64,000 nt of DNA from Candidatus Dojkabacteria bacterium (GCA_050950165.1 JBMNHC010000001.1:453744-517743), one strand, 5' to 3'. Positions 15,164 through 62,714 are shown, numbered from the stretch's first letter. The notes: generated from the letters alone by a model not told the origin. A program made the numbers and translations.

Positions 15164-15333
15164 TATATCTTTTAAGTAAGAATATTTATTTACTGCTCTA
15201 ATGGCTATAAGATTAAATAAAACAACAAAGATAATACTTGCAATAGTAATATTAATTCTTTCTGTTGCTCTAGGTTATTTAATATGGAGAATTAATCAAC
15301 CAGAGAGATTAGATCCTACAGATAGTGATGCGG
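15143..15333 (+). repeat. 5' conserved unit of the tandem surface-protein cassette (copy 1). It overlaps the last 7 codons of rseP, the leader, and the signal-anchor coding region.
   Basis: 191 nt with a single mismatch to 17002..17192. Confidence 0.85.
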
Positions 15334-16985: not shown

Positions 16986-17001
16986 GGTTTTAGATATTAA
17001 G

Positions 17002-17192
17002 TTGCAGAGTTAGTTTAGATAGTATATCTTTTAAGTAAGAATATTTATTTACTGCTCTAATGGCTATAAGATTAAATAAAACAACAAAGATAATACTTGC
17101 GATAGTAATATTAATTCTTTCTGTTGCTCTAGGTTATTTAATATGGAGAATTAATCAACCAGAGAGATTAGATCCTACAGATAGTGATGCGG
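17002..17192 (+). repeat. 5' conserved unit of the tandem surface-protein cassette (copy 2)
   Basis: Near-identical to 15143..15333, including the TTGCAGAGTT boundary. Confidence 0.85.
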
Positions 17193-18673
17193 GAGGTGGT
17201 TTTTCTAATGAACGGTGCAGAAAGAACAGCTGTAGTTGTAAAGATAAAAACGGGAATAGTATAACCTGTGAAAAGTATAATGAGGGGAATCCTGAGAATA
17301 AATGTTATCACCACATATGTAAAGATAGTAATGGCAATACTCTAGGAGGGGTTTTCTCGACAAACTCTGATTCAGATTCCGCGTGTCGCGATTGTGGATT
17401 TGATACAAAACCAAAAGAGGAAGGAGGAGAGTGTAATTTTGGGTCAGAATGTGCTGCTTGTCCTTGGCCAAAGGTAGCAAACTGTTCTAATCACAAATGT
17501 GGATGTATCCTTCCAGATCAAATACCTGCAGATCAATTACAATGTGGTTCTATAACACCATGTAATCCTCCAGCATGTCCTCAAGGAATGGTAGATTGTG
17601 GTACTTCTGCAGATAGTGAGGATAAAACAGGTTGTTCTGCTCAGGGATCGTGTATTGCTGAGTGTACAATATGTAAGAATAAATCTATAATATTTAGACA
17701 TTGTAAAGCTGCACCTACAAATGTTTGTGATGGAGGTAGTTGGATAGATAAACCTAGTGGTAATATTGACTATGGTAAGAGTATAACCTTTAGTGCTAAA
17801 GCTAAAGATTCAGATGGTATTAAGAGAGACAGTATTGTAGTTAAAAAAGGAACAGAAACATTATCCGAATGTAGTGGTGTAGAGAGTGTAAATTGTATTA
17901 AGTTAACAGAAGCAGCTACAGAGACAACTATTAGTGGAACATTAAGTACCCCTTCTAAGCAGTTAGCACCAGGTAACTATACTATCTCTATGAGCTGGAA
18001 AGACAAGAAAGATGTTGGTGGAGAAGCATGTGCATTAACTACATCTTTTGTAGTACTTGAAAAGCAAACTAATCCTGATTGGGAGATCTCTAAGTCTGTG
18101 GTAGAGCAATGTATTGATGATAGTACAGAAGATCCCAAAGCAGAGTTAACGTATACCATTGCTATTAAAAATACAGGAGATGGAGCGGGTCAGATATCCA
18201 AGATAGAGGATGTATTGGATGATAAGGTTCAAAGTAGCTTTGTTCAATCATCTTCTATTACCCCTCCAGGTAAATATGAGGGTGGAAAGATTATCTGGGA
18301 TTACATATCTTCCCCTCTCTCACTAGCAGCTGGAGAAAGTAAGGTATATACGTATAAGATACTTTTGGATAAAGAAAATTTTGAAACATATAGTAACACT
18401 GCAACATTGACTCCTGTAGGTTCTCCTTCTCTTTCTTCTTCTGCAAATATTGTTGCAGATTGTATAATTACAACACCAGATACACCAGATAAACCTGGAG
18501 AGAAAGTACCTCAAACAGGTCTCTTTGATTCAGTTCTTTCTAGAATAGCTGCAGGTGTAATATTAGTAATATTCGGTGTCTTTGTATACAACATACCTAA
18601 TACAATGTTTGCTAGTAAAGAACCATCCTACAAGTATAGAGATAGATTTGAAAGAAAAGTAGCAAACAGGTAA
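17060..18673 (+). CDS. Cys-rich cell-surface protein, paralog B (same architecture, different ectodomain)
   Basis: The first 44 aa and last ~52 aa are identical to paralog A. The middle has a different Cys pattern (CRKNSCSCKDKNGNSITC...). DUF11-like AELTYTIAIKNTGDGAGQISKIEDVLDDKV. C-terminus KVPQTGLFD + TM + basic tail. Confidence 0.7.
   Translation: MAIRLNKTTKIILAIVILILSVALGYLIWRINQPERLDPTDSDAGGGFSNERCRKNSCSCKDKNGNSITCEKYNEGNPENKCYHHICKDSNGNTLGGVFSTNSDSDSACRDCGFDTKPKEEGGECNFGSECAACPWPKVANCSNHKCGCILPDQIPADQLQCGSITPCNPPACPQGMVDCGTSADSEDKTGCSAQGSCIAECTICKNKSIIFRHCKAAPTNVCDGGSWIDKPSGNIDYGKSITFSAKAKDSDGIKRDSIVVKKGTETLSECSGVESVNCIKLTEAATETTISGTLSTPSKQLAPGNYTISMSWKDKKDVGGEACALTTSFVVLEKQTNPDWEISKSVVEQCIDDSTEDPKAELTYTIAIKNTGDGAGQISKIEDVLDDKVQSSFVQSSSITPPGKYEGGKIIWDYISSPLSLAAGESKVYTYKILLDKENFETYSNTATLTPVGSPSLSSSANIVADCIITTPDTPDKPGEKVPQTGLFDSVLSRIAAGVILVIFGVFVYNIPNTMFASKEPSYKYRDRFERKVANR
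18448..18604 (+). repeat. 3' conserved unit of the tandem surface-protein cassette (copy 2)
   Basis: Matches 16748..16904. Confidence 0.85.
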
Positions 18674-28027: not shown

Positions 28028-28927
28028 ATGAATACACAGTCTACATCTACAATATCAATAGAGAGGGATGAAGAGCAGAGAGTAGGTAAGGTACTTCTTT
28101 CTAATGGTTGGTCTGAAGAGGTAGATAGAAATGAGTATGTAAAAGCAAGGTACAGGAGTCCTTTAGGTTCTGTTGCAATACTGTATAGTAGTGGTAAGTT
28201 GGTATTTCAGGGTAAGCAAGATTTTAATTCTTTAATATTAGATATTAAACAGGAATCTTCAGAAGAGAGTTCTTCTTTTGTAGACCATATTGGAGTAGAT
28301 GAGGTAGGTAAAGGAGATTACTTTGGTCCTCTAGTTGTAGTTAGTTGTTTTGTAGATAGAGAGTTTGAAAAAAGAATCTCTCTTTTAGGGTTTGGAGATT
28401 CTAAGAGGTTTTCGGATAGGAAGATATTAGAACTTTTTAAAGAGATAGAGGAGTATCCTTACTACTTTAGCTCTGTAGTTGTACCTGCTGAGTACAACAG
28501 ATTAGTACTGGAGTATGGTAATGTTGCTGTACTACTTGCAAAGCAGCATAGTATTGTAATAGAGAAGGGGCTTTCTAAATTAAAATTAGATGGAGTGGAG
28601 TGTAAGCGAGTGGTAATAGATCAGTTTTCTTCGTCAAAAGATAGGGTAAGAAAAGAGTTAGGAGAGTTGGGTAGTAGGGTAGAGTTAATTCAATTTCACA
28701 AAGGTGAGTCAGATCTAGCTGTAGCTGCAGCTTCTATAATAGCGAGAGCCATATTTTTAAAAGAGTGGGAGAAGATGAATGAGAGATATGATTTAGTATT
28801 TCCTAAGGGTGCAACTAGTGTAGTAGAGTTTGGTAAGGAGTTTGTATCTAAGTATGGTGAAGATGAGCTTAGGAATGTAGCAAAGATTGGATTTAGAACA
28901 ACAGATGAGATATTAAAACTCTTTTAG
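28028..28927 (+). CDS. rnhC: ribonuclease HIII-like (RNase HII-family catalytic domain with N-terminal extra domain)
   Basis: HIGVDEVGKGDYFGPLVVV catalytic DEVG(R/K)G motif preceded by an ~85-aa N-domain containing ...SGKLVFQGK, typical of RNase HIII. Confidence 0.7.
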   Translation: MNTQSTSTISIERDEEQRVGKVLLSNGWSEEVDRNEYVKARYRSPLGSVAILYSSGKLVFQGKQDFNSLILDIKQESSEESSSFVDHIGVDEVGKGDYFGPLVVVSCFVDREFEKRISLLGFGDSKRFSDRKILELFKEIEEYPYYFSSVVVPAEYNRLVLEYGNVAVLLAKQHSIVIEKGLSKLKLDGVECKRVVIDQFSSSKDRVRKELGELGSRVELIQFHKGESDLAVAAASIIARAIFLKEWEKMNERYDLVFPKGATSVVEFGKEFVSKYGEDELRNVAKIGFRTTDEILKLF

Positions 28928-29805
28928 TTTTTCTTCTTATCTTCTTTCAAGGATTTAATAAGTAGTACTGTAGTTATGGATATTGATAGTAGGATTATTA
29001 ATTCTACTGTATAGCTATTTATTGTTGTTTCTGTATTTATACTTGTACTATCTAGTCCACTAGAGAAGTTACCGATAGCTACTCTCTTGTAGAGTATGTC
29101 TGAAATATGCCACTGTTTTACAGTTAATTCTTCTTGTAAGCTATCTTTAGGGTAAAGTTTTTTAGAGTCTCTGTTTATAAAAAGGTATTTAGGTTTGTAG
29201 TTTCCCTTACTATTAAACACTTCTATTCTTCCAATAGGGGCTAATACATAGTTAGAGTTATTCTGTATGGTATATTTAATTTTTAGTGGAGAGATGAACG
29301 GTATCCCTTTCTGAACGACATCTATCTTTGCTGTAAAGTCTGATGTAGTAATACCTTTAACTTGGTCATCTCTATCTACAATGTGTAGTACTACTAGTTG
29401 TGATACAGCCTTATTTATATACACGCTATCCTTCTCTGTTACCTCAGAGAGCACTAATATATTGAAGTAGGTTCCTTTTTCTAAGTTCTCAACAGGATAT
29501 ATTTCATAAGGTATTTCTTTTTTACTGTTTGCTTTAACAACAAATGTATCTGTATCTACCTTTAGAAAGATATTTTTACTATCTTTAATAATTTCATCAT
29601 CTTTATAGTTATAGTCATTTGTACTTAAGAGTATCTCAATATCTTTATCTTGAGTATTTTCGATAATAACGGAGCTTAGTTTTCTCTCTCCTTGTGATAG
29701 AGAGAGTTCATTTACTGCAGGAAAGAGAGTAGTAGCATGTACAGAAGATATACCCAGAAGGGTATAAAGGAATATTGATATACCGATTGTTTTGATTAGT
29801 TTCAT
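28924..29805 (-). CDS. surface-cluster protein 4: signal peptide + Ig-like ectodomain + C-terminal TM anchor (hypothetical)
   Basis: Signal peptide MKLIKTIGISIFLYTLLGISSVHA. C-terminal LIILLSISITTVLLIKSLKEDKKKN. Last gene of the 4-gene minus-strand operon. Confidence 0.5.
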   Translation of the reverse strand: MKLIKTIGISIFLYTLLGISSVHATTLFPAVNELSLSQGERKLSSVIIENTQDKDIEILLSTNDYNYKDDEIIKDSKNIFLKVDTDTFVVKANSKKEIPYEIYPVENLEKGTYFNILVLSEVTEKDSVYINKAVSQLVVLHIVDRDDQVKGITTSDFTAKIDVVQKGIPFISPLKIKYTIQNNSNYVLAPIGRIEVFNSKGNYKPKYLFINRDSKKLYPKDSLQEELTVKQWHISDILYKRVAIGNFSSGLDSTSINTETTINSYTVELIILLSISITTVLLIKSLKEDKKKN

Positions 29806-30764
29806 TTCTTTCTCATTCTCCTCTTACTAGTTCTTACTATTATAGCAGTAAGAAGTATGAGAAGAATAGCAAGGATAAGTTTCCATGGTATTATCCAGAA
29901 TGTGGTTTCTTCTGTTAATACAGCAAACCCAGGTTGGAAACTTCTGTATGTGACAAAGAGTTTAGCTTTAAGAGGACCCAATGCTATCTTCTTTGATGGG
30001 GAAAGATATCCTTGTTGACTCCAGTTGTCTATGTAATTACCGAGGTTATCTCTTAGTAAGCTCTGTCTATTTCTATTAAAGGGAACTCTAGCTACTTCCT
30101 GCTTGAAGATGTTTTCTATAACTATCTCACCTGCAGGGGTAATATGTGTATCTCCTAAGTTTTTAATCTGTGTTATGAGGTCTACATCTACTTTCTCATA
30201 TGTCTTTTTATCTGTAACAAATCTTAGTAGCTCTGCACTCTCTACAAACTCATCTCCTACTTGTAAGAGGATAGGGGTTCCTGCTGCTAAGTTTGTATAG
30301 GTTACAGTTCCCTGTTGTTGTGGTGCTGATTGTGATATTAAAAATATCTGAGTATTGTACTCTCCATTTGTAATATCTAGCGGTACATTAATAGTATATT
30401 TTAACTTTGTATTTTTATTCGGTTCTAAAAATAGAGATTCTTTATCAATTGTAACCCACTTTGAAGCAGAGTAGAGAGCTTTACTATCTTCCTCTTCAGT
30501 TAATATTACTGCTGTTCCTGGTTGATTCTCTATCTGTTTAAATGATCTAACATATATGTTGTATGTATCTGCACTCTGAGATAGGTTCCAAAAGACTAGT
30601 TCTTCTGAATATGTTCCTCCTGGTTTTACTTTTAGTACTTTGTAAGTAGGAGAGACACCGATAGAAAGAGGACTCTGTGCAAAAGTAGGCGTTAGGCCTA
30701 AACAGAGTAAAAGTATGGGCAGTATTAATATTTTATTATATTCCTTTAAGCGTTTTAGTATCAT
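29802..30764 (-). CDS. surface-cluster protein 3: signal peptide + PapD/Ig-like N-domain + C-terminal TM anchor with poly-basic tail (hypothetical)
   Basis: Signal peptide ...LLCLGLTPTFAQS. SIGVSPTYKVLKVKPGGTYSEELVFWNLS resembles a chaperone/Ig-fold first strand. C-terminal WKLILAILLILLTAIIVRTSKRRMRKK. Confidence 0.5.
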   Translation of the reverse strand: MILKRLKEYNKILILPILLLCLGLTPTFAQSPLSIGVSPTYKVLKVKPGGTYSEELVFWNLSQSADTYNIYVRSFKQIENQPGTAVILTEEEDSKALYSASKWVTIDKESLFLEPNKNTKLKYTINVPLDITNGEYNTQIFLISQSAPQQQGTVTYTNLAAGTPILLQVGDEFVESAELLRFVTDKKTYEKVDVDLITQIKNLGDTHITPAGEIVIENIFKQEVARVPFNRNRQSLLRDNLGNYIDNWSQQGYLSPSKKIALGPLKAKLFVTYRSFQPGFAVLTEETTFWIIPWKLILAILLILLTAIIVRTSKRRMRKK

Positions 30765-30774
30765 TATTTAACTA

Positions 30775-31857
30775 TTAGTAGTAACCACCACATATGAAGG
30801 TGATTGTTTCTTGGTATGAACCTGCAACAGCTGATGCCCCAGCTCTTGCTCCGTATGTTATTGTTGCACTCTCAGCAGAAGCCTGAGCTCCATTTTGAGA
30901 AAGTATTAACTTTGCAGCAGAAGAGGTTCTATCTATTGTTCCAAATGTTCCAAGTGTACTGTCAGAGAAAGATGCAGGTACTACTGCACCAGTAGGTTGA
31001 GAAACTGTAATTCCAAATCCTTCACTTCCAGCAACAGTCAAGTCTATTGTATCGTTAGGGCCAGAGGGTATTAAATATGTAGTAGCAGAACTTTTCCAAA
31101 GACCTGCATCTCCAGATGTTCCATTCCCTGTACCGTAGACAGCCCAGTAGTATCCACTAGTGGCTGTAGTTGAGATTGAGTTTGTTGCTGTTGCGTAGTT
31201 ACCACCAGGATAGAGGGTACCTAGATTAACAGCATTTCCTGTTATTGAACATCCTACACTAGGAGCCGAAGATACTATAGCAGATACTACTACTTGATCA
31301 CTTGTTAGCAATTGGATCTTAAATGTCATTGAATCTGCTGTAGTTCCTTGGAATGCTGTGACGATAACATCATGAACACCAGCTGCACTGTTTGTACCAA
31401 GAACTCCTAAATTACCTGCAATCTTTACGCCGTATGTAGTTCCTCCAGTTAAAGCAGTCAAACCAGTAATCGTTATTGTATCAGATGTTCCAGTTGAACC
31501 TTGGCTACATGTAGCAGAGAGAGTTCCAGGAAGAGCTGCATCTATTGCCCATCCTGTAGAAGCTAAATCAACTTCAGAAGATGAAACACCTGTAGCTGTT
31601 AAGGATCCTGCAGTTCTACACCATGTGGTATCTCCTGCATCTGGAAATTCGATAGTTATTGTTCCTCCTGTTGGAATAGTGGTAGTGGTGTTGATAGCTA
31701 GAACATATTCGATACCTGTTGCAATATTTGTTTGTATCCTATTCATGTATAGGTATACATTTGCTAATGTTGCAGCGTGCGAAGAGTAATGGAGAAGAAG
31801 TGCTGATACAACAGCAATAAAGATGGTAGGTATTACAACTCTAATTATATTCTTCAC
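30775..31857 (-). CDS. surface-cluster protein 2: secreted Thr/Gly/Ser/Ala-rich beta-rich protein (hypothetical)
   Basis: Signal peptide ...LLHYSSHAATLA. About 45% T+G+S+A. No TM. Ends ...ICGGYY. Confidence 0.5.
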   Translation of the reverse strand: MKNIIRVVIPTIFIAVVSALLLHYSSHAATLANVYLYMNRIQTNIATGIEYVLAINTTTTIPTGGTITIEFPDAGDTTWCRTAGSLTATGVSSSEVDLASTGWAIDAALPGTLSATCSQGSTGTSDTITITGLTALTGGTTYGVKIAGNLGVLGTNSAAGVHDVIVTAFQGTTADSMTFKIQLLTSDQVVVSAIVSSAPSVGCSITGNAVNLGTLYPGGNYATATNSISTTATSGYYWAVYGTGNGTSGDAGLWKSSATTYLIPSGPNDTIDLTVAGSEGFGITVSQPTGAVVPASFSDSTLGTFGTIDRTSSAAKLILSQNGAQASAESATITYGARAGASAVAGSYQETITFICGGYY

Positions 31858-31943
31858 TTTTTAGGCAGATTAAATTTATGATTAAAATAGAAATTCTATC
31901 TACAGCTTATATACAGAATTTTATAATGTCAAGGGGTTTCAAT

Positions 31944-33143
31944 CTAATATCTAGGTACCAAAACTAAGGTTATGGATTCTTGATAATCTGAAGCAGGTGT
32001 GTATGAAGTTCCTGGTTTTGCAATAACCTTTAAAGCCATTCTACCTGAGACTATGGGAGCACTACCATCATATATTTTTTTAGGAGATGTACTTATTTCT
32101 CCTACTGAGTTAATAGTACCTGAGTAGTTTGTAGTGGCAGATATTACACCGAAGAGTGGAGAACTGTTGTCATATGCAATATATTCACTTTGAAGACCGA
32201 AGCCAGATTGTACTTGATCTAAGTTAGCAGTAGCAGACACAATCTTTTCTAAAGTAGTAGGGCTGTACAATCCTCCGTACAATCCTTTTCCCATTATCGC
32301 AAATCCTCCTTCTGAACTTGTTTCAGCGTCCATCCATATTCTGTCTCCAGCTGTAATAGCTGCAGATCCTCCTATCAATTCATATGCTCCTGTGAATGAA
32401 ATATTGTAAGGGGGAGAACTTTCTGCTGTTTGTCCACTACTTCCTGCAATATCAATATCGAAAAAGAGAGAACCTACAGCTGTAGTAGCAGAGCTTACTG
32501 GTCCTGCCTCTGTTTGAGTAAAATCTCCTTTAAGAGCAAATATCTTAATGTAGTAAGTTTTACTTGCTTCTAATCCTTGAATATTGAATACCTCTGTTTC
32601 CCAGTCTTCCTTTGTCATGAAATCAGAGATGTTGTGTGTACTTGCACTCTCTGGCATAAAGGTAGATGCATCAATATATCTAATATCTGATACAAAATTG
32701 TCCAAAGAAATCATTAACGCATAAAGGGTGTCTGTGGGGTTTCCTTGAGTATTAATTTCAAATCTTGCCTTGTTGTAGCATCCTCCTGTACCACATATTG
32801 CTACCATACCACCACTACTTAACTCAGTAGGTCCAGTGGTACAACTAGAAGATCCTGAAGTGGTAGTTTCAAAACATGATGCTATTGGAACAGCAGGTAA
32901 GAATGCTACCTCAGGGCTTGTTCCTAGTTTGTAAGATGTAGAATATGTTCTTGGATTACTAGATATCATTCCTACACCAAGTAGGGCAGAGTAGTTTCCA
33001 CTAGCACTCTCTACAATTCCTCCTCCTTGGGTTGTAGCTCCCACTATCTTAAAGTTTGTAGAGTCTAGCTCTTCAGCAACGACCTTCATAGGCAAGATTA
33101 AAAGAAGGAGTAGTGGAAGGAGTTTGAGGTTCTTAATATTCAT
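31944..33143 (-). CDS. surface-cluster protein 1: secreted Ser/Thr/Gly-rich protein (hypothetical)
   Basis: Signal peptide MNIKNLKLLPLLLLLILPMKVVA. No TM. Ends ...LVLVPRY. First gene of the operon. Confidence 0.5.
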   Translation of the reverse strand: MNIKNLKLLPLLLLLILPMKVVAEELDSTNFKIVGATTQGGGIVESASGNYSALLGVGMISSNPRTYSTSYKLGTSPEVAFLPAVPIASCFETTTSGSSSCTTGPTELSSGGMVAICGTGGCYNKARFEINTQGNPTDTLYALMISLDNFVSDIRYIDASTFMPESASTHNISDFMTKEDWETEVFNIQGLEASKTYYIKIFALKGDFTQTEAGPVSSATTAVGSLFFDIDIAGSSGQTAESSPPYNISFTGAYELIGGSAAITAGDRIWMDAETSSEGGFAIMGKGLYGGLYSPTTLEKIVSATANLDQVQSGFGLQSEYIAYDNSSPLFGVISATTNYSGTINSVGEISTSPKKIYDGSAPIVSGRMALKVIAKPGTSYTPASDYQESITLVLVPRY

Positions 33144-33224
33144 ATTAAAATGATATTGGAGATATTACTGGTAGTCAAATGAGAGAAAAAAGGTATAAGG
33201 CGTGATATAATTGGGGACTTTGTT

Positions 33225-33311
33225 GGAGAGATGACAGAGTGGTCGAATGTGACGGTCTTGAAAACCGTTGTACGAGTCTTCGTACCGTGGGTTCGAATCC
33301 CACTCTCTCCG
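33225..33311 (+). tRNA. tRNA-Ser (anticodon TGA), long variable arm
   Basis: GGAGAGA acceptor stem, anticodon stem ACGGT/ACCGT with loop CTTGAAA (anticodon TGA), long variable arm, GGGTTCGAATCCC T-arm. Confidence 0.8.
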
Positions 33312-33339
33312 TTTTAATAACTTTTGTATCTCTCTAGAT

Positions 33340-34179
33340 ATGTCTCAGAAGGGTAGGGATAAAGAACAGAGTATGTTTAATGGATTAAACATACCTGATA
33401 GAGTTAGTATTGATGAATTTGTTGAGAAGTTAGTATCAAGATTAAGTGGATCGTTTGAGAAAGAGATTAAGAGACAGATCGCTAGATTAACAGTGGAGTA
33501 CAAGAGGGATAAGCAGGATACAGTAAATACAGGTATTACAGCTAGGGCAGAAGAGAGAGCAAAAGAGTGGATATGTCCTAGAATTCCTAGTTGGGTTAAC
33601 TCTGACCATCTAACAGTACTGGGTCTTGTTGCTGCATTTATCATAGTAGCTGGTTTCATCTTAGGGTTTAATAACAGAATATATCTTCTTCTAGTTGTAT
33701 TAGGTTTGTTTCTTAATTGGTTTGGAGATTCATTTGATGGTAGTTTAGCTAGATACAGAAAAAAGACTAGACCTAACTACGGCTACTATATAGATCATAT
33801 GATAGATGCAATTGTAGTAATGATTCTTGCAATAGGGTTGGGTATATCAGGTTTTGCTAGAATAGATGTTGCACTACTGTTTGCTCTTGTATATTTGGGA
33901 TTAATGATACATGTAGAGCTAGTAACATATGTACAGAATACTTTTAAGTACTCTTTCGGTGTAGTAGGACCTACTGAGATGAGAATAGTAGGGGTTTTCA
34001 TTACAATATATATGTACTTTGCACCTATAAAGTACTACTTTGTACAAGGTTATCAAATCTCTCAATATGATATTGCAATATTGGCTCTTTCCATCGCTAT
34101 GTTTGTTGTTCTCATTATTAATATCCTAAAAAAAGGTATTGAGCTTGATAGGATGGATAGGAAAAGGTGGAAGAGTTAA
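33340..34179 (+). CDS. CDP-alcohol phosphatidyltransferase family protein
   Basis: DSFDGSLARYRKKTRPNYGYYIDHMIDAI matches D-G-x2-A-R-x8-G-x3-D-x3-D. Multiple TM helices. The ORF-track start (33268) lies inside tRNA-Ser, so it is trimmed to the Met at 33340. Confidence 0.75.
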   Translation: MSQKGRDKEQSMFNGLNIPDRVSIDEFVEKLVSRLSGSFEKEIKRQIARLTVEYKRDKQDTVNTGITARAEERAKEWICPRIPSWVNSDHLTVLGLVAAFIIVAGFILGFNNRIYLLLVVLGLFLNWFGDSFDGSLARYRKKTRPNYGYYIDHMIDAIVVMILAIGLGISGFARIDVALLFALVYLGLMIHVELVTYVQNTFKYSFGVVGPTEMRIVGVFITIYMYFAPIKYYFVQGYQISQYDIAILALSIAMFVVLIINILKKGIELDRMDRKRWKS

Positions 34180-36790: not shown

Positions 36791-36794
36791 TCGA

Positions 36795-36845
36795 CAGAAC
36801 ACCCCATAGTTATGTATGTTTAAGGTTCCCCTTTATTCTTTTTAA
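36795..36845 (+). repeat. short intergenic repeat, copy 1 (CAGAACACCCCATAGT ... ATGTATGTTTAAGGTTCCCCTTTAtTCTTTTT)
   Basis: Shares two blocks (16 nt and ~33 nt) with 62725..62830. Sits 4 nt after the cca stop codon. Confidence 0.7.
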
Positions 36846-36924
36846 AGTATCTATTACCCTAGACCAGAGCATCTCCTTGTTGTATTATTTATATATACTA
36901 ATTTAAACTGCTTACTGCTCAACA

Positions 36925-38352
36925 ATGAAGATACAATTCCTAGGTGCTACAAGAACAGTAACGGGTTCTTGCTATTATATAGATACTGGAACCTTTAAAT
37001 TTTTGGTTGATTGTGGTGCTTTCCAAGGTAAAGATGAATTAGAGAAATTAAACTATGAACCATTTCCTTTTGATCCTGCCTCTATAGATGCAATATTTCT
37101 TACTCACGCTCACTATGACCACTGTGGAAGAATCCCCATATTAGTTAAGCAAGGTTTTAAAGGTAGAATATTCTCTACACAACCAACTAGAGATTTAGCT
37201 AGAATTGTTCTACTTGATGCTGCTAATTTGCAAAGGGAGTCATATGAGAAATGGACTGTTAGAAGTAGAGAGGAGAGTGAGCAGAAGGAGCTTTCTGAGG
37301 AAGGTTCTTTGTATGAACAGAGGAAACCTCTCTTTTCAGAAAGTGATGTAGAAAGTATGATGCAGTTGTTTGAGGTATATCCCTACGGTGCTTCTGTTAA
37401 CTTACACAATGGTGTTGAGTTTAGATTTAGAGATGCTGGGCATATTTTAGGCTCCGCTATTATGGAGTTTTGGGTAAAAACAGATGCAGGTAGAGAGAGA
37501 AAGATTGTATTTTCTGGAGACTTAGGTCAGCCTGGAGCAAGAATTGTAAGAGATCCAGACTTAATTAGAGAAGCAGACTATGTAATATGTGAGTCTACAT
37601 ATGGTAATAGGTTGCACAAAAACAAAGATGAGACTGTACTAGAACTTCTCTCTATACTAAAACAGGCACAAGAAGAGGGTGGTAATGTATTAATTCCATC
37701 TTTTGCAATTGAGAGAACACAAGAAGTTTTGTATGAGATTAATCTGTTTGTAGAAAACAAATTACTAGATCCAATGCCTGTATATTTAGATAGCCCTATG
37801 GCTTCTAGGGCTACTGCTATTTTCAGGCAGTATCCTACCTTCTATGATGAAGATGCTAGAAGATTACTTGATAAGGGAGATGATCCTTTTAATTTCCCTG
37901 GATTAGAAAAGATAGAGTCTGTTGAAGATTCTAAAAGATTAGTATCTAAAAATGGTGTTGTAATTATTGCTGGTAGTGGGATGTGTACTGGTGGGAGAAT
38001 AGTTCACCACATTAAGAATCATATATATAAGCCTAGTACTCATATGATTTTTGTTGGGTATCAGGTGGAGGGAACACTTGGTAGGAAGTTAGTGGATGGT
38101 GAAAAGGATATTAAAGTTATGGGTAAACCTGTTGAAGTTCATGCAAAGATACATACATTGGGAGGTTTCTCTGCTCATGCTGACCAGAGAGACCTAAGAT
38201 ATTGGTTAAGAAGCTTCGGTCATACCCCTAAGAAGATATTCATTACACACGGTGATGAAGAGATTGCCATCGGTTTTGCTACAAATATTAAGAGTGAATT
38301 AAATATTGAAACAGATGTTCCTAAATTAAATGAGGTATTTGAATTAAAGTAA
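36925..38352 (+). CDS. metallo-beta-lactamase / beta-CASP family ribonuclease (RNase J / CPSF-like)
   Basis: MKIQFLGATRTVTGSCYY N-terminus and HAHYDHCGRIP (HxHxDH). beta-CASP-type downstream His/Asp motifs. 475 aa. Confidence 0.7.
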   Translation: MKIQFLGATRTVTGSCYYIDTGTFKFLVDCGAFQGKDELEKLNYEPFPFDPASIDAIFLTHAHYDHCGRIPILVKQGFKGRIFSTQPTRDLARIVLLDAANLQRESYEKWTVRSREESEQKELSEEGSLYEQRKPLFSESDVESMMQLFEVYPYGASVNLHNGVEFRFRDAGHILGSAIMEFWVKTDAGRERKIVFSGDLGQPGARIVRDPDLIREADYVICESTYGNRLHKNKDETVLELLSILKQAQEEGGNVLIPSFAIERTQEVLYEINLFVENKLLDPMPVYLDSPMASRATAIFRQYPTFYDEDARRLLDKGDDPFNFPGLEKIESVEDSKRLVSKNGVVIIAGSGMCTGGRIVHHIKNHIYKPSTHMIFVGYQVEGTLGRKLVDGEKDIKVMGKPVEVHAKIHTLGGFSAHADQRDLRYWLRSFGHTPKKIFITHGDEEIAIGFATNIKSELNIETDVPKLNEVFELK

Positions 38353-39296
38353 TGGATATACAGAAGATTTTAGGTATTGAAAAAGATATTAAAGATTTGA
38401 ACATTCAAGGAGCAACCAATGTTGCCATTGCTACCTTGGAAGGTATGAAGATATATATCTATGAATCTGAACAGAGTGATCCAGATCTGTTTTACAAAGA
38501 GCTAATGGAGGTTGGACAGAGATTGGCTAATGCAAGAGAGAATGAGCCTTTAGCTAGAAATGGTGTAGGGTATATTAAATATATGTACAAACAGAAGAAT
38601 ATTGATTTACATGATATTAAAAGTATGAAACAAGCTCTTGATGGGTTCTGTGAGCAGTTTCTTACAATGATTGCGGACAGTAAAAGATCTATCATTGAAC
38701 AGTGTGTTCCTAGATTGAAGTTTTTTGAGAATGTTCTTACTCACTGTCACTCTTCTACAGCTCTTGCAGTGATAAAGGGTATAGGGGAGGGGAAGGATTC
38801 TTTTGATGTAGTATGTACTGAATCTAGACCTAGATACCAGGGTAGAAAGACTGCTAGAAGTCTTTTGAATGAAGGCATTTCTACTACTATGATTGTTGAT
38901 AGTGCAGTTGAATCTTTTATCATTGGAAGAGGATCTGTTCCTATCGATACTATCTTTATCGGTAGTGATCAGATAACAATGAGTGGATATTGTATAAATA
39001 AGATAGGGAGTTGGGGAATAGCTATGAGTGCATACCATGCTAGTAAGCCTGTATATGTTGTTTCACCACTTTTAAAGGTAGACCCTAGTATTGGAGTAAA
39101 TGATTTAGTAATTGAAGTGAGGGAAGATAGAGAGCTATGGCCTGATGCACCCAAAGACCTTATGATTTACAATCCTGCTTTTGAGGTTGTTGATAGGGAT
39201 TTAGTTACTGGTTTTTTGACCGAATTTGGTATAGTAAAGCCTAGGGAGATAGCTGATATTATTCGTGCTAAATATGCATGGCTTTTTGAAACTTAA
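38352..39296 (+). CDS. eIF-2B alpha/beta/delta-family isomerase, probable ribose-1,5-bisphosphate isomerase
   Basis: eIF2B-family fold length (314 aa), with a conserved ...CTESRP..QG...A..L...GI..T. core. It is immediately followed by an AMP-phosphorylase-type gene. MtnA-type methylthioribose-1-P isomerase cannot be excluded from sequence alone. Confidence 0.6.
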   Translation: MDIQKILGIEKDIKDLNIQGATNVAIATLEGMKIYIYESEQSDPDLFYKELMEVGQRLANARENEPLARNGVGYIKYMYKQKNIDLHDIKSMKQALDGFCEQFLTMIADSKRSIIEQCVPRLKFFENVLTHCHSSTALAVIKGIGEGKDSFDVVCTESRPRYQGRKTARSLLNEGISTTMIVDSAVESFIIGRGSVPIDTIFIGSDQITMSGYCINKIGSWGIAMSAYHASKPVYVVSPLLKVDPSIGVNDLVIEVREDRELWPDAPKDLMIYNPAFEVVDRDLVTGFLTEFGIVKPREIADIIRAKYAWLFET

Positions 39297-39314
39297 TTTA
39301 AAATTTTAACTAGA

Positions 39315-40823
39315 ATGTCACTTTATCTAAAGAGCAAAAAGATTGATCTAGGAGCAGGTAAGGACCTGTTCGTTGTAGTGCATCAAAGTGATGCAGATGA
39401 CCTTGGGATCACTGAGGGAGAGGTAGTATTGTTAGGCTACAGGGACGTAGAACTTTACGTAAAAGTTATAATTACAGATAGTGAGGTAGGTGTAGGAGAA
39501 GTAGGTCTCTATGAGGAAATAACGGAGGAATATCACATACCAGAGAGTGCTAAGGTGATGATAGATATCCCTAACGCTAGTAAATCTCTAGAAGCTATTA
39601 AGAAAAAGATATCGGGTCTTAGACTTAATGAAGAGGAAGTACTCTCAATTATGGAAGATATTGGTTCTAGGAAGCTAAAGGAAACAGAAGTTGCGTTTTT
39701 TGTCTCTACTTTCTTTAACCCTGGTTTTAACAATGATGAGATTAAATGGATGGCTAAGGGTATGGCCGAATCAGGAGAGATATTGGACTTCAAATATATT
39801 AAGAATAACAAGGAGTTGGTAGTAGACAAACACTCCATAGGAGGAACTGCGGGTAAGGGTATTACCCCAACTCTAGTACCTATGCTTGCTGCTACTGGCT
39901 TGGTAGTTCCTAACAGTTCCACGCGAGCCATTACATCTCCTGCAGGCACGACAGATATTTTAGAGTGTGTAATGCCTGTTGCTCTTGACAAGAAAAAGGT
40001 ATACGAGGTTGTTGGTAAGGTAGGTGCATGTATGGTATGGGGAGGGTCACTGTATTTAGCTCCAGCTGATGATGAAATCATTAATGTAGAAAGGTCTCTT
40101 AAGATTCAAGAGTTTCAGAAGGTTCTAGTTAGTATTGTTGCTAAGAAAATCGCTATGGGTGTCACATCAGTTCTGATTGATCTGCCATATGGCAAAGGAA
40201 CCAAGTTAGAGAGACCTGACGACTTAGAATTTCTCGAAAGAGAGTTTGAGAAACTATTCAAAGAATTTAATATTAAATGTGTAACATTCAGAAGAGTAGT
40301 TAAAGGTCCTGATGGTAATGGAATCGGTCCAACTTTGGAGATGAGAGACTGTTTGAGGATATTAGAAAGAGATGAGAAACGCCCATTAGAGATGGAAGAG
40401 GTCGTGATAGGGATGGCAGGGGAGATATTTGAGCACAACGGTAAGGCTAAGAAAGGGGAGGGTAAGAAACTTGCACAAGAATTGTTAGATTCAGGTAAAG
40501 CATTAAAGAAGTTCTGGGAGATTGCAAAAGCTCAAGGTGCTAAAAAGGTGGTTAAGGCCAACGAATTAGAAGGTGGTAAACTAACACACGAGGTATTAGC
40601 TCCAAAGGACTTTGATATTAAATATATATGTACTAGAGAGATTGTAGAGATAGCAAGAGCTCTGGGTACACCTAAAATTAAAGATGCAGGTATATATCTA
40701 GAGAAGATGCCAGGAGAGAGCATTAAGAAAGGAGAGGTGTTAATGACCCTATTTGCAACTACACAGGACAGGTTAGATGATGGAATTAAGGCTGTTGATT
40801 TGAGTAAACTTTACGAGATTTAG
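39315..40823 (+). CDS. AMP phosphorylase / thymidine-phosphorylase-family protein (archaeal-type, ~500 aa)
   Basis: KHSIGGTAGKGITPTLVPMLAATGLVVPNSSTRAITSPAGTTDILE matches the pyrimidine-nucleoside phosphorylase core (KHSTGGVGD...). The N-terminal ~80-aa extension and ~500-aa length are typical of AMP phosphorylases. Confidence 0.7.
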   Translation: MSLYLKSKKIDLGAGKDLFVVVHQSDADDLGITEGEVVLLGYRDVELYVKVIITDSEVGVGEVGLYEEITEEYHIPESAKVMIDIPNASKSLEAIKKKISGLRLNEEEVLSIMEDIGSRKLKETEVAFFVSTFFNPGFNNDEIKWMAKGMAESGEILDFKYIKNNKELVVDKHSIGGTAGKGITPTLVPMLAATGLVVPNSSTRAITSPAGTTDILECVMPVALDKKKVYEVVGKVGACMVWGGSLYLAPADDEIINVERSLKIQEFQKVLVSIVAKKIAMGVTSVLIDLPYGKGTKLERPDDLEFLEREFEKLFKEFNIKCVTFRRVVKGPDGNGIGPTLEMRDCLRILERDEKRPLEMEEVVIGMAGEIFEHNGKAKKGEGKKLAQELLDSGKALKKFWEIAKAQGAKKVVKANELEGGKLTHEVLAPKDFDIKYICTREIVEIARALGTPKIKDAGIYLEKMPGESIKKGEVLMTLFATTQDRLDDGIKAVDLSKLYEI

Positions 40824-42639
40824 TTCTCTTAGCTAGTTTAGTAATTACATTCAAAAGTAATATTAATAGTCCTAATACTAGTAGTATGGGAAGGAGTATT
40901 ATTATTGATTTCCCTATCACTGTAGTTTTGATAAAAGTATTTATTCCATCTATTGCACTACTACTATCTCCTTCCTCTACCGATGTAATGTCTGAGTACT
41001 CTAAAAGAGTCTCTTGGTTAGGTACAGACTCTACTGCATATATTGAGACAGAGTAGTTAGAAAAATCCTCATTATTTGCATTATCAGCAGAATATATCTT
41101 TATATTAGTAATCTTTTCATCAAAGAAAGTCTCCCAAAGTACTTTCTCAATATTCTGTCCAATTAACATATTCTCTCCCTCTACAGTAGGATCTACACTC
41201 AACCAACCGTACTCTGGAATCCATATATGTACCCATTGATGTCTACTGTTTCCTTCAGTATCACTCTTCTCTTTTGTTACTAAATTAGAATATCCTAGTG
41301 CTGCTCTCGCAGGAACACCCTGTGCTCTTAGTATTGCAATCATAGAGTCTGCATACTCCATACATACAGATGCTTCTCCTTGTAATGCAGCCCTAGCTCC
41401 CATTCTCTCATTCTTGCTATTTGCCTTCTGCTCATCATACTCTAATTTACTATTAATATATCTATAATCATTTTTGATTAACTCCATAATGGTACTACTT
41501 TGATCAAGAAGCTTTTTAGCTTCACTTGCAATGTAGATATCTGTACTCTCCCAGTATTTAGTAGGAGTTGTATATTTTTTTAATTCATTTTTCTCCTTAA
41601 TCTTACTGAAATATTCACCCAAGCTATACTCAGGTATCGCTCTTCTGTTCTCATAGCTGTCTTGCTTTAGCCATATATATCCTGTTACTAATATCTCACT
41701 ACTTTTGTTTGCTGCAACCTCAAACCTTGCCACCATATTCCCCTCACTATCCTTAGTTAACTTAACTGGAGTAGGATATATTCTCTCTATCTTTACTCTC
41801 TGATTAACCTCTCCAAAATCTCTAGGTAAAGAAAACTCATATATATTTGTTGAGAGAGCACCAATTAGGGAAGAATATTTGTCTGGAACAATACTGTCTG
41901 TTTTAGGTGTTTTGTACTTTAGCTCAAACCTATATATCTGCTCTGTACCAAACTCTAGTGTAGGAGAGTGCTCAATCCTATCCTTTGCAGAAAATGAATA
42001 TATATTGTTAGTAAGTGTTTGTTCTAGTTTGAACTCTTTAGGAAATACTCTTACTAAAGGTTGTATATCTTTCTCTGTGATAATCTTTAAGTCATATGAG
42101 AGAGATGTTTTTGTTCCACTCTTTTCATCTTTCTGAACAAACGGAGTGTCTTTGTAGAGTGCAGGAGCAAAAAGTATTGTATGATTGTAATTCCTTTTTA
42201 CCAAATCATGAGTCTTGTACTCTACAAATATTTTGTATGGAGAACTTAGTGTAGTTTCTTTGTAGTTAGGAACTTTTAAATACATACCCTCTCCATCTTT
42301 TAGTTGCTCTAAGGTGTAGGTAAGGTTTCTCTTTGATGTAGGATCTATTACCTTCAACGAATCTTTCTTGTACTGTCTCTCTAGCTGTATCTCATGTGCT
42401 TTACTAGTAGGTAGATCAGGGATATGGAATATCTTCTCTCCCTCCATTGAGTAAAAATATTTACTGTTTCTTACCTCTCTAATATATGTAGTTTGTACTA
42501 GTACAAAATCTTGCCCCGTTTGATACCTAATGGTCGTATTGTTTTGTATATTAAAATCATATGTTTGAGCATATATAGAGGTAGGGATAGTAAAGAGCAG
42601 AACTATTAGGAATAAATATTTTAAAAATTTTTCTTGCAT
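40786..42639 (-). CDS. transglutaminase-like cysteine-protease superfamily protein, secreted with C-terminal TM anchor
   Basis: Signal peptide ...IPTSIYAQT. Cys-His-Asp core: CMEYADSMIAILRAQGVPARAALGY ... HQWVHIWIPEYGWLSVDPT. C-terminal IIILLPILLVLGLLILLLNVITKLAKRTKSRK. Confidence 0.65.
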   Translation of the reverse strand: MQEKFLKYLFLIVLLFTIPTSIYAQTYDFNIQNNTTIRYQTGQDFVLVQTTYIREVRNSKYFYSMEGEKIFHIPDLPTSKAHEIQLERQYKKDSLKVIDPTSKRNLTYTLEQLKDGEGMYLKVPNYKETTLSSPYKIFVEYKTHDLVKRNYNHTILFAPALYKDTPFVQKDEKSGTKTSLSYDLKIITEKDIQPLVRVFPKEFKLEQTLTNNIYSFSAKDRIEHSPTLEFGTEQIYRFELKYKTPKTDSIVPDKYSSLIGALSTNIYEFSLPRDFGEVNQRVKIERIYPTPVKLTKDSEGNMVARFEVAANKSSEILVTGYIWLKQDSYENRRAIPEYSLGEYFSKIKEKNELKKYTTPTKYWESTDIYIASEAKKLLDQSSTIMELIKNDYRYINSKLEYDEQKANSKNERMGARAALQGEASVCMEYADSMIAILRAQGVPARAALGYSNLVTKEKSDTEGNSRHQWVHIWIPEYGWLSVDPTVEGENMLIGQNIEKVLWETFFDEKITNIKIYSADNANNEDFSNYSVSIYAVESVPNQETLLEYSDITSVEEGDSSSAIDGINTFIKTTVIGKSIIILLPILLVLGLLILLLNVITKLAKRTKSRKVYSNQQP

Positions 42640-60224: not shown

Positions 60225-62714
60225 TTGATTACTATGTTAACTGTTTTAGGAATTTTACTTTTACTTTCTCTAATCTTTGTTCTTTTTGTACTTTTTGTTG
60301 TAAACAGGAAGAAAGAAGAGGAGATAGATATGTTAGAAGAGATACGAAATCCTCTAGTTATGCAGATACTTGTTCCTAGAGAGAATGATAAGACACCTCT
60401 TGCAGCAGAGCAGATGTTTGCCTCTATTCATGGTATTTTAGGTGATTCTATTAAATCTTTTGATCTGATTAGTTTTGAGATCTCATCTAGTGGAGATGAG
60501 GGTATTAAATTCTATGTTGTAATTCCTCAGCATCTTGCTAAGTTTGTAGAGGGTCAGATATATGCTCAGTATCCTAACGCAGATATTACATATACCACGG
60601 ATTACTGTGAGAGGAAGAATTCAGAGATGAAACTTTTTGTAACTACTGGGGAGGTAGAGCTAGAGAAGGATTTTATCTTTCCAATTAAAACGTTTAGAAA
60701 CTTTGAAGTTGATCCTTTGGCAGCAATTACAGGAGCGGTTTCAGACTTAAAGCTAGGAGAGCATGCTTGGATTCAGATTATTGTTAGACCTGTTTCTAAC
60801 TATTGGCAGGGTAGTTCTAAAAAATATATTATGGCAATTAGAGAGGGTAAGAATCCTTACGGAGAGAGTTTCTGGGACAAAATATCTTTACTTTTACAGA
60901 GTATAGGGAAGAGTCTTTCTGAAAGTAGTAGTAGTGAGCCACAAAGAAAAGAGGTTGTAAAATTAGAGCCTGGGCAGGAGGAAGAGCTTTCGGAGATTGA
61001 AAACAAGATGTTAAAGTTAGGTTTTGAGTTTTGTATTAGGGTTGTTACAAAGGCACCTACACAGATAGAGTCGGAGCAGATATTGAGAGATATTGTAGCT
61101 AGTTTTAAACAGTTTACTACAGCACATTTGAATAGTTTTGTACACTCTGTTCCTACTAAGGATGGAGTGGAGATGTATGCTGACTTTATCAAAAGATATC
61201 TCTCTAGGGAGACGGTAGATATATTGAATATTGAGGAGTTAGCTTCTCTTTACCATATGCCTAATATTTCAGTAGAGACTCCCAATATTGCATGGAGTAG
61301 GTCTAAGAAGTTAGAGCCTCCTATGAATCTTCCTAAGGCAGTTGATGATGGTGTTACTGTTTTTGCGGAAACAGATTACAGAGGAGCAAAGGAAGAGTTT
61401 GGTATTAAGAGAGAGGATAGGAGGAAGCATTTTTACATTTTAGGAAAAACAGGTGTAGGTAAGTCTACTGTATTTAAGAACATGTTTATCTCTGACATAC
61501 TCAGAGGTGAGGGAGCATGTATTGTAGATCCTCACGGTGAGCTAGTAGAAGAGTTGTTAGACTTTATTCCTCCTGAGAGAGTAGAGGATGTAATATATTT
61601 TAATCCTACAGATACACAATATCCAATAGGTTTTAACCTTTTAGAGTTAGAGGATAAGTCTCAGAGAGATTTAATAGCGGATGGTGTTGTAGAGGTGTTT
61701 AAGAAGCAGTTTGGAGATTCCTGGGGTCCTAGATTGCAATATATTTTGACTAATACTGTAGCTACTGCACTGGAGGCACAAAATACTACACTTCTTTCTG
61801 TGCCTCGTCTGCTTACAGATAAAAACTACCGTAAATTTATCCTAAAGCATGTAGATGATCCGATATTAATAAAGTTCTGGGAGGATGAGTTTGCTCAGAT
61901 GAGTCAGAATCAGAAACTTTTAGCAGAGGCTATCTCTCCGATACAAAACAAGGTGGGTCGTTTTATCTCTTCTGCTGTAACAAGGAATATAATAGGGCAG
62001 GTTAAGTCTACGATAGATTTGAGAGAGATAATGGATAGTAAAAAGATTTTGCTTGTTAATCTTGCACAGGGTAGGCTTGGTGAGGAGACAGCGTCTCTTC
62101 TTGGGGGTATGATAATTACTAGGTTACAATCTACAGCTCTTGAGAGAGTGGATATGCCTGCGGATGAGAGAAATGACTTTTTCTTGTTTGTAGATGAGTT
62201 TCAGAATTTTGCAACAGATTCTTTTGCTAAGATTCTTTCAGAGGCAAGAAAGTTTAGGTTAGATCTTTGTATGACTAATCAATATATTGATCAGCTTCCT
62301 TTAACTGTTAGACAAGCGATATTTGGTAATGTTGGTACTTTGGGTTCTTTTGTAGTTAGTCAGTCGGATGCAGCTGTACTTGAGAAGGAGTTTGCTCCTA
62401 ATGTGTCTTCTGCTGATTTAGTTTCTTTAGATGCTCACTCCATGTACATTAAGTTATGTATTGATGGTATGACATCAAATACTTTTAGTGCTAGGTCTTT
62501 GCCTCCTAGGTTTGAGCCTTTTGGCCTTAGAGAGAGGGTAGTTGCTCACTCTAGAGAGATGTATGGTGTTCCTAAGGAGGTAATTGAAGAGAAGATTGTT
62601 AGGTGGAGTAATCAGGCATATAGTGAGAAGGGTAATAGGTCGGTTGCAAAGAAAGAGAAGGTGTCTGTTAAAAAGCAGGATGATGGTCAGTATGAGATAG
62701 AGATTAAGGAGTAA
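60225..62714 (+). CDS. membrane-anchored P-loop NTPase of the TraG/VirD4/HerA (DUF87-like) superfamily
   Basis: N-terminal TM (MITMLTVLGILLLLSLIFVLFVLFVV). Walker A HFYILGKTGVGKST followed by IVDPHGE. Walker B FFLFVDEFQNF. 829 aa. Confidence 0.55.
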   Translation: MITMLTVLGILLLLSLIFVLFVLFVVNRKKEEEIDMLEEIRNPLVMQILVPRENDKTPLAAEQMFASIHGILGDSIKSFDLISFEISSSGDEGIKFYVVIPQHLAKFVEGQIYAQYPNADITYTTDYCERKNSEMKLFVTTGEVELEKDFIFPIKTFRNFEVDPLAAITGAVSDLKLGEHAWIQIIVRPVSNYWQGSSKKYIMAIREGKNPYGESFWDKISLLLQSIGKSLSESSSSEPQRKEVVKLEPGQEEELSEIENKMLKLGFEFCIRVVTKAPTQIESEQILRDIVASFKQFTTAHLNSFVHSVPTKDGVEMYADFIKRYLSRETVDILNIEELASLYHMPNISVETPNIAWSRSKKLEPPMNLPKAVDDGVTVFAETDYRGAKEEFGIKREDRRKHFYILGKTGVGKSTVFKNMFISDILRGEGACIVDPHGELVEELLDFIPPERVEDVIYFNPTDTQYPIGFNLLELEDKSQRDLIADGVVEVFKKQFGDSWGPRLQYILTNTVATALEAQNTTLLSVPRLLTDKNYRKFILKHVDDPILIKFWEDEFAQMSQNQKLLAEAISPIQNKVGRFISSAVTRNIIGQVKSTIDLREIMDSKKILLVNLAQGRLGEETASLLGGMIITRLQSTALERVDMPADERNDFFLFVDEFQNFATDSFAKILSEARKFRLDLCMTNQYIDQLPLTVRQAIFGNVGTLGSFVVSQSDAAVLEKEFAPNVSSADLVSLDAHSMYIKLCIDGMTSNTFSARSLPPRFEPFGLRERVVAHSREMYGVPKEVIEEKIVRWSNQAYSEKGNRSVAKKEKVSVKKQDDGQYEIEIKE

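Follow-up and report, generated by a model that had tools for sequence, protein, structure and literature searches.

Three adjacent genes were analysed in a 64,000-nucleotide (nt) stretch of a Candidatus Dojkabacteria bacterium genome (GCA_050950165.1, JBMNHC010000001.1:453744-517743), referred to here in its entirety as the window. They encode a nuclease of the beta-CASP/metallo-beta-lactamase (MBL) type, an isomerase of the IF-2B family and a phosphorylase of the thymidine phosphorylase family. The phosphorylase and isomerase are probably the enzymes that generate ribulose-1,5-bisphosphate (RuBP) in an archaeal-type adenosine monophosphate (AMP) or pentose-bisphosphate pathway, with RuBisCO encoded elsewhere in the genome and the nuclease supplying nucleoside monophosphates (NMPs). 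In the proposed pathway a TTHA0252-like beta-CASP 5'-3' exoribonuclease would degrade RNA and supply 5'-NMPs. The 502-amino acid (aa) phosphorylase would cleave these phosphorolytically to the free base and ribose-1,5-bisphosphate (R15P), and the isomerase would turn R15P into RuBP, such that the operon as a whole would convert RNA to RuBP. A form III-like or II/III RuBisCO would then carboxylate RuBP to two 3-phosphoglycerates (3-PGA), which would enter lower glycolysis and yield ATP. The AMP pathway in Dojkabacteria (WS6, Patescibacteria) is already known, having been published in 2016-2019. New beyond the literature are the three-gene operon with an exoribonuclease, a wider nuclease/phosphorylase module, and the missing AMP-activator site in the candidate phyla radiation (CPR) isomerase.

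Assignment of the isomerase

An earlier note on this DNA had described an eIF-2B-family isomerase gene followed by a phosphorylase gene of about 500 codons. Both open reading frames (ORFs) lie exactly where it had placed them and the Pfam assignments agree. The isomerase matched IF-2B (PF01008) with 180 bits (E 5e-53). Its top NCBIfam model was TIGR00511 ribulose_e2b2 (R15P isomerase, EC 5.3.1.29) with 173.6 bits, while models of MtnA gave 95-135 bits (125 bits for TIGR00512, cut-off 279). Structures in the PDB ranked similarly, with the R15P isomerases 5YFJ/3A11 (Pyrococcus horikoshii, Thermococcus kodakarensis) at 124-129 bits, MtnA at 84 bits or less and eIF2B-alpha at 71 bits or less.

Ligand residues listed from the P. 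horikoshii (Ph) structures (PMC5789824) were aligned to 74 Dojkabacteria orthologues. Catalytic Cys132 and Asp206 (Ph Cys135/Asp204) are invariant among them; these residues are common to MtnA and hence do not discriminate. The 5-phosphate ligands Ser134 and Lys242 (Ph Ser137/Lys240) and the sugar ligands Asn216 and Lys217 (Ph Asn214/Lys215) are also invariant. MtnA has no reason to keep 5-phosphate ligands, and their retention therefore favours an R15P isomerase. Three of the four 1-phosphate ligands (Ph Arg22, Arg65, Gln166 and Lys215) are invariant, and the position of Ph Arg22 is occupied by Gln in all 74 orthologues. Since IF-2B domains fused to RuBisCO (P0254, P0256) carry the same Gln, the substitution is probably compatible with isomerase function.

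Archaeal R15P isomerases are activated by AMP at an allosteric site (Ph Arg124, Arg190, Lys194, Asn209, Arg229, Trp231 and Asp290) that has been called absolutely conserved in these enzymes (PMC5789824). It is not conserved in the Dojkabacteria orthologues: Arg190 is replaced by Glu, Trp231 by Pro, Asp290 by Thr and Lys194 by Ile or Val, and the Arg229 position is variable. The IF-2B-RuBisCO fusion proteins P0254 and P0256 served as a control. Their isomerase domains carry IQGA(T/S) as a motif and have likewise lost the AMP site, and the window isomerase has the lineage-specific form IQGAT. Because the RuBisCO-fused domains share both traits, the window isomerase is assigned on sequence to a CPR type of R15P isomerase, with relatives that occur in physical fusion with RuBisCO. 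This CPR isomerase would no longer be under the feed-forward activation by AMP that controls its archaeal counterpart.

Assignment of the phosphorylase

The phosphorylase matched Glycos_trans_3N (PF02885), Glycos_transf_3 (PF00591) and PYNP_C (PF07831), all above the Pfam cut-offs. Among NCBIfam models it passes the archaeal-type umbrella PRK04350 (437.4 bits, cut-off 434), followed by TIGR03327 AMP_phos (EC 2.4.2.57) with 425.3 bits and TIGR02645 ARCH_P_rylase with 421.7 bits. The thymidine and pyrimidine-nucleoside phosphorylase (TP and PyNP) models TIGR02643 and TIGR02644 gave 132 bits (cut-off 571) and 192 bits (cut-off 409). The earlier note had described an N-terminal extension and a length typical of AMP phosphorylases (AMPpases). 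The extension, about 85-90 residues, is real and has no counterpart in DeoA/PyNP; the archaeal-type models align from residue 5-8 and thus include it.

The best solved relative in the PDB was the AMPpase of T. kodakarensis (Tk-AMPpase, 4GA5/4GA6), with 285 bits over query residues 8-491. This alignment begins at query residue 8 and chain residue 6, and overall identity is 37%. The best PyNP structure scored 108 bits and aligned only from about residue 90. The loop RAITSPAGT resembles Tk RAITSAAGT, whereas PyNP has RGLGHTGGT. K172/H173/S174, S202, T212, S273 and K277 align with PyNP K81/H82/S83, S110, T120, S183 and K187, which we take to be the residues that classically bind phosphate and base in the TP family, retained in the window protein.

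Orthologues with 56-87% identity were found in 80 Dojkabacteria species representatives, many of them named 'AMP phosphorylase' by the Joint Genome Institute. The NCBI protein MGI6423451.1 is 100% identical and is annotated 'MAG: thymidine phosphorylase [Candidatus Dojkabacteria bacterium]', MAG denoting a metagenome-assembled genome. A DPANN-like homologue (L126) passes the AMP_phos model with 542.9 bits. By these comparisons the phosphorylase belongs to the archaeal-type AMPpase/ARCH_P_rylase family and not to DeoA, as a divergent lineage outside the curated equivalog. The AMPpase-like and R15P isomerase-like identities suggested in the earlier note are upheld by model scores (425 versus 132-192 bits; 174 versus 125 bits) and by PDB scores (285 versus 108 bits; 129 versus 84 bits) for the phosphorylase and the isomerase, respectively.

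Assignment of the nuclease

The Pfam domains of the nuclease cover residues 13-466, and KH and RNase J C-terminal domains are absent. Its best solved relative in the PDB was Thermus thermophilus TTHA0252 (311 bits over both segments), whose THAHLDH aligns with THAHYDH (HxHxDH) of the window protein. TTHA0252 itself is reported to act as a 5'-3' exo-RNase, and probably also as an endo-RNase, and to influence mRNA levels globally in Thermus (PMC4229858). The window protein is, as judged from its sequence, a TTHA0252-type beta-CASP ribonuclease with predicted RNase activity. It is probably cytoplasmic because no signal sequence was evident by eye at the N-terminus of the translation. Hydrolytic 5'-3' exo-RNases of the beta-CASP family release nucleoside 5'-monophosphates. 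These are the substrate class of AMPpase, for which AMP, CMP and UMP are listed in PMC5113843.

The three genes form a conserved operon

The earlier note had also placed a beta-CASP/MBL gene directly upstream of the isomerase gene. This was borne out, and the stop codon of the nuclease gene overlaps the start codon of the isomerase gene (Table 1). The phosphorylase gene follows after a gap of 18 nt. ORF calling in 75-80 Dojkabacteria loci gave a median nuclease-to-isomerase gap of 2 nt (minimum -4) and a median isomerase-to-phosphorylase gap of 18 nt; the few outlier gaps at these two junctions look like frameshifts. Unlike these tight junctions, the spacer between the CCA-adding enzyme gene and the nuclease gene ranged from 31 to 6750 nt in the same loci. 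In the window this spacer contains two sigma-70-like hexamer pairs (36791-36820 and 36860-36888), not above chance for the region, and a promoter/terminator scan gave no signal above chance.

Table 1. Positions of the operon and adjoining features in the window
Feature	Position	Strand	Description
Beta-CASP/MBL nuclease gene	36925-38352	+	475 aa; Pfam Lactamase_B + Beta-Casp + RMMBL
Ribose-1,5-bisphosphate isomerase gene, CPR type (predicted R15P to RuBP)	38352-39296	+	314 aa; IF-2B family
AMP (nucleoside-monophosphate) phosphorylase homologue (predicted NMP + phosphate to base + R15P)	39315-40823	+	502 aa; thymidine-phosphorylase family
TAATG stop/start overlap of nuclease and isomerase genes (translational coupling)	38350-38354	+	read from sequence
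Spacer 5' of operon, likely promoter region	36791-36924	+	134 nt; 31-6750 nt in relatives
Convergent transglutaminase-like gene	40786-42639	-	3' end overlaps phosphorylase 3' end by 38 nt

In order, the locus contains a hypothetical gene, those for the CCA-adding enzyme, the beta-CASP nuclease, the isomerase and the phosphorylase, the convergent transglutaminase-like gene and YchF. This order is retained in relatives down to 56% identity. At one locus (L064) the usual flanking genes are gone and the trio is complete. The nuclease, isomerase and phosphorylase genes form one tight operon in about 75 Dojkabacteria species, also where the flanks are rearranged. The tentative link that the earlier note had drawn from the nuclease to the other two enzymes is strengthened by this structure and its conservation, and we still infer it.

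The 3'-3' overlap of the phosphorylase and transglutaminase-like genes (40786-40823) is likewise part of an arrangement, convergent in orientation, that is conserved across the phylum. The transglutaminase-like protein has 617 aa and is membrane-anchored by appearance.

The nuclease/phosphorylase pairing recurs in Proteobacteria

Metagenomes were scanned for phosphorylase loci with the Tk-AMPpase sequence as the lead. None of about 40 Thermococcales AMPpase loci, nor either of two DPANN-like ones, had a beta-CASP, isomerase or RuBisCO gene adjacent. In a bacterial locus (L129, 96-3264) a beta-CASP gene overlaps a 500-aa phosphorylase gene by 4 nt and a Prs-like gene follows. Proteobacterial plasmids and chromids carry the annotation 'MBL fold/beta-CASP RNA metallo-hydrolase - thymidine phosphorylase family protein - ribose-phosphate pyrophosphokinase'. 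The nuclease gene is immediately upstream of the phosphorylase gene on the same strand in 45/48 proteobacterial records, these being the records present in both top-60 match lists and including many copies of one island. The records come from several genera of alpha- and betaproteobacteria. The window nuclease is 35% identical over its full length to that of a Sphingobium cluster, and the phosphorylase of the proteobacterial cluster is a clear member of TIGR02645 ARCH_P_rylase (567-595 bits). A literature search returned no paper linking beta-CASP proteins with AMPpase and none describing the proteobacterial three-gene cluster.

Examples of the cluster, in which the genes overlap, are L129:96-3264, L167 (NZ_CP115780.1) and L168 (NZ_CP084400.1 78910-82798). 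Its third gene encodes a Prs-like ribose-phosphate pyrophosphokinase (PRK07199). The cluster often lies in copper/heavy-metal islands, with genes for copper P-type ATPases, CueR and multicopper oxidases as neighbours.

Recurrence of the pairing across distant bacteria supports a functional coupling of nuclease and phosphorylase. A fuller model can be proposed, in which the beta-CASP exoribonuclease is the dedicated, translationally coupled first step of a Dojkabacteria three-gene operon leading from RNA to 5'-NMP, R15P and RuBP. The nuclease/phosphorylase pair would represent a module of long standing in bacteria, occurring also on plasmids and chromids of Proteobacteria, there with a third gene that is Prs-like, and the CPR isomerase would work without AMP activation. 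We advance this model tentatively, believing it nearly as readily as we doubt it.

RuBisCO in the window and in relatives

The earlier note had reported that the window lacks a RuBisCO large subunit gene. In agreement with that report, all six frames were free of matches to a motif pattern (one that would miss form III motifs), and the form III and form II probes used in tblastn did not rise above noise (E at least 0.07). No RuBisCO gene was found within 10 kb on either side in any of 84 Dojkabacteria loci. Methanococcoides burtonii RbcL, its sequence checked against PDB 5MAC, served as a form II/III probe. The best 120 matches listed were all archaeal, DPANN or unnamed proteins of at least 77% identity, and none was traced to Dojkabacteria. 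A putative form III-like RuBisCO clade was picked by representative search, composition, tree, cluster and context analysis; a search with its profile gave only DPANN proteins among the best 120 matches listed.

A bacterial II/III RuBisCO (P0199) was set aside as a probe because its contig carries TIM and fructose-bisphosphate aldolase genes, unlike WS6. Another protein, P0261 with 1265 aa, had looked like a possible triple fusion but consists of a RuBisCO large subunit (residues 438-860), a C-terminal APH-like phosphotransferase (kinase) domain and a 430-aa N-terminus without an assigned domain, and is not fused to isomerase or phosphorylase.

Two close relatives share the synteny of the window. 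In HGW-Dojkabacteria-1 (L007) the phosphorylase is 84% identical, and Hernsdorf et al. 2017 (PMC5520028) reported RuBisCO of the II/III as well as the III-like form in this genome. The second, GW2011_GWE2_33_157 (L013, 77% identity), is WS6-4 of Table 1 in Wrighton et al. 2016 and carries a III-like RuBisCO (PMC5113843). Because these relatives carry RuBisCO, a RuBisCO gene elsewhere in the present genome is considered likely.

Alternative explanations

Several results weigh against the proposed pathway. The isomerase scores below the TIGR00511 equivalog cut-off (173.6 against 314.1 bits). The phosphorylase scores below the cut-offs of AMP_phos (535) and of ARCH_P_rylase (434.6), a model of unknown function that matches it about equally well. 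The Gln at the Arg22 position and the missing archaeal AMP-activator site belong here, as do the lack of RuBisCO near the operon in the 84 loci and the two seeded searches that traced none to Dojkabacteria among the best 120 matches listed. The block from the CCA-adding enzyme to YchF is syntenic within the phylum, and adjacency of the nuclease could partly be inherited gene order. In CPR, deoA and e2b2 descend vertically, whereas the RuBisCO forms (II/III, III-like, III-c) are patchy and laterally acquired (Jaffe et al. 2019, PMC6389311); a genome without RuBisCO is therefore conceivable. No biochemical data for any CPR AMPpase or R15P isomerase were found in the literature.

Scores under the equivalog cut-offs, shared superfamilies, the NCBI name 'thymidine phosphorylase' and a catalytic Cys/Asp common to MtnA are what could be expected of ordinary bacterial salvage, with the isomerase as MtnA (methionine salvage) and the phosphorylase as DeoA/Pdp. 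This is very improbable, since the MtnA model gave 125 bits (cut-off 279) versus 174 for the R15P isomerase model, with the PDB ranking in agreement, and the TP/PyNP models gave 132-192 bits versus 425-437 for the archaeal-type models. The invariant 5-phosphate Ser/Lys, the N-terminal AMPpase domain, the AMPpase-type active-site loop and an isomerase clade that includes RuBisCO fusions also argue against it. The earlier note had named grouping of the phosphorylase with TP/PyNP, and of the isomerase with MtnA alongside mtn genes, as evidence against its proposal; neither grouping was found, and there are no mtn genes in the window, which is where they were sought. Hardly worth entertaining is the identification of the nuclease as the type VII CRISPR effector Cas14. 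The top NCBIfam match is indeed cas14_MBL_CASP (NF045584), and the PDB matches include Cas14 structures (232 bits), but the 427 bits of the NCBIfam match are far under the 800-bit cut-off and cover the nuclease module only (profile positions 1-435 of 612). TTHA0252 scores more (311 bits), the window has no CRISPR-like repeat array, and there are no cas genes among the neighbours. The Cas14 identity was rejected on the sub-cut-off score and the lack of repeats and cas neighbours.

The role of the nuclease allows a more serious alternative. It could be a general mRNA-decay or RNA-processing enzyme, neighbour to the other genes by inherited order and not feeding the pathway. TTHA0252 alters global mRNA levels in Thermus (PMC4229858), the gene next upstream also belongs to RNA metabolism, encoding an enzyme of the CCA-adding/poly(A) polymerase family, synteny across the phylum takes in all 10 kb of the block, and Thermococcales and DPANN-like AMPpase loci lack an adjacent beta-CASP gene. 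Inherited order does not readily account for an overlap or few-nt gap that about 75 species retain against a CCA-nuclease spacer of up to 6.7 kb, for the trio kept in L064 though its flanks are lost, or for the same pairing with 4-nt overlaps in distant Proteobacteria. The chemistry also fits, as an exo-RNase releases 5'-NMPs, the substrate class of the phosphorylase. We consider a general nuclease unlikely, though it deserves weight. Less probable still is that the pair works without RuBisCO here, the nuclease and phosphorylase recycling RNA to free bases and R15P for nucleotide salvage with RuBP not the end point. To our knowledge RuBP is the only product of R15P isomerase and has no consumer besides RuBisCO, which speaks against such a role, as do the strictly conserved R15P/RuBP ligands of the isomerase. 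In addition, the closest complete relative has two RuBisCOs and another close relative has one, and all RuBisCO-bearing CPR genomes examined had both genes (PMC5113843). In favour of it are the lack of RuBisCO in the window and near the operon in 84 loci, the seeded searches that traced none to the source genome among the best 120 matches listed, and the nuclease/phosphorylase pair that elsewhere has a Prs-like kinase and not an isomerase as the third gene. RuBisCO is also sparse in CPR, where deoA and e2b2 are vertical (PMC6389311), and WS6 genomes lack nucleotide biosynthesis (PMC5113843).

Other features of the window

The window has a G+C content of about 35%, and the remainder encodes housekeeping functions; no mtn, glycolytic or CRISPR genes were found in it. 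The product of the ribosomal protein S2 gene (10779-11948, +) has 389 aa and is extended at its C-terminus by a segment matching the RNA polymerase alpha C-terminal domain/helix-hairpin-helix (PF03118, PF14520), an unusual fusion. A CDP-alcohol phosphatidyltransferase ORF (33268-34179) begins with TTG at 33268 inside tRNA-Ser(tga) (33224-33312), and its true start must be downstream. Four consecutive ORFs of 293-399 aa without a Pfam match occupy 28924-33143 (-), at least one with a signal-peptide-like N-terminus, and two adjacent paralogous DUF11-repeat proteins of 594 and 537 aa are encoded at 15201-18673 (+). Both groups are probably cell-surface proteins typical of CPR. An 829-aa protein with TrwB/HerA-type (type IV coupling protein-like) ATPase domains is encoded at 60225-62714 (+) in an otherwise housekeeping region.

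Comparison with known systems

In T. kodakarensis the AMP/pentose-bisphosphate pathway consists of AMP phosphorylase, R15P isomerase and form III RuBisCO (Sato 2007, Aono 2012/2015, as cited in PMC5113843). Both window enzymes match the same families best, and they share with the archaeal enzymes the phosphorylase N-terminal domain and the isomerase catalytic and 5-phosphate ligands. Identity is only 37% for the phosphorylase and about 28% for the isomerase, however, and unlike the archaeal enzyme the window isomerase lacks the conserved AMP-activator site and has Gln for Arg22. The Thermococcales genes are also dispersed, with no isomerase, RuBisCO or beta-CASP gene beside that for AMPpase in the approximately 40 loci, unlike those of the window.

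The window also resembles the CPR/Dojkabacteria AMP pathway (PMC5113843, PMC6389311, PMC5520028): the phylum is the same, the genes are orthologous and the proposed role, nucleotide ribose to RuBP, 3-PGA and ATP, is the same. The earlier note had remarked that the pathway is reported in candidate-phyla bacteria, and its bacterial context proves to be Dojkabacteria, where it is already published. Both the name of the phylum and the first closed WS6 genome come from Wrighton et al. 2016 (PMC5113843). These authors found homologues of both AMP-pathway genes in all RuBisCO-bearing CPR genomes, checked isomerase residues, and proposed that WS6, without upper glycolysis and nucleotide synthesis, lives on the ribose of others' RNA via this pathway. 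Later MAG studies annotate it routinely (PMC9868632). L013 and L007, genomes from the CPR studies, share the synteny of the window. The portions of PMC5113843, PMC6389311 and PMC5520028 that were searched contain no mention of the beta-CASP gene or a three-gene operon, and that of PMC5113843 has neither 'operon' nor 'synten'. The AMP pathway is thought to let CPR organisms with tiny genomes burn the ribose of scavenged nucleotides, and an operon-encoded exoribonuclease would be a concrete, testable answer to the origin of the NMPs.

Form III-c RuBisCO loci have consecutive or fused e2b2-RuBisCO-deoA (Jaffe 2019, PMC6389311). Like the fused examples (P0254, P0256), the window has a CPR-type isomerase with the IQGA(T/S) motif and the AMP site lost. 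Unlike them, it has no RuBisCO between or near the two genes, which are separated by 18 nt, and the nuclease gene leads the operon.

The proteobacterial cluster resembles the window in having a TTHA0252-like beta-CASP gene directly upstream of, and in the cluster overlapping, an archaeal-type 500-aa phosphorylase gene. It differs in its order, nuclease-phosphorylase-Prs, in a third gene that is Prs-like and not for R15P isomerase, and in a phosphorylase that is clearly TIGR02645. If functional coupling holds, the pairing would define an RNA-catabolic module wider than CPR and provide the first functional handle on the beta-CASP-phosphorylase-Prs cluster common on proteobacterial plasmids.

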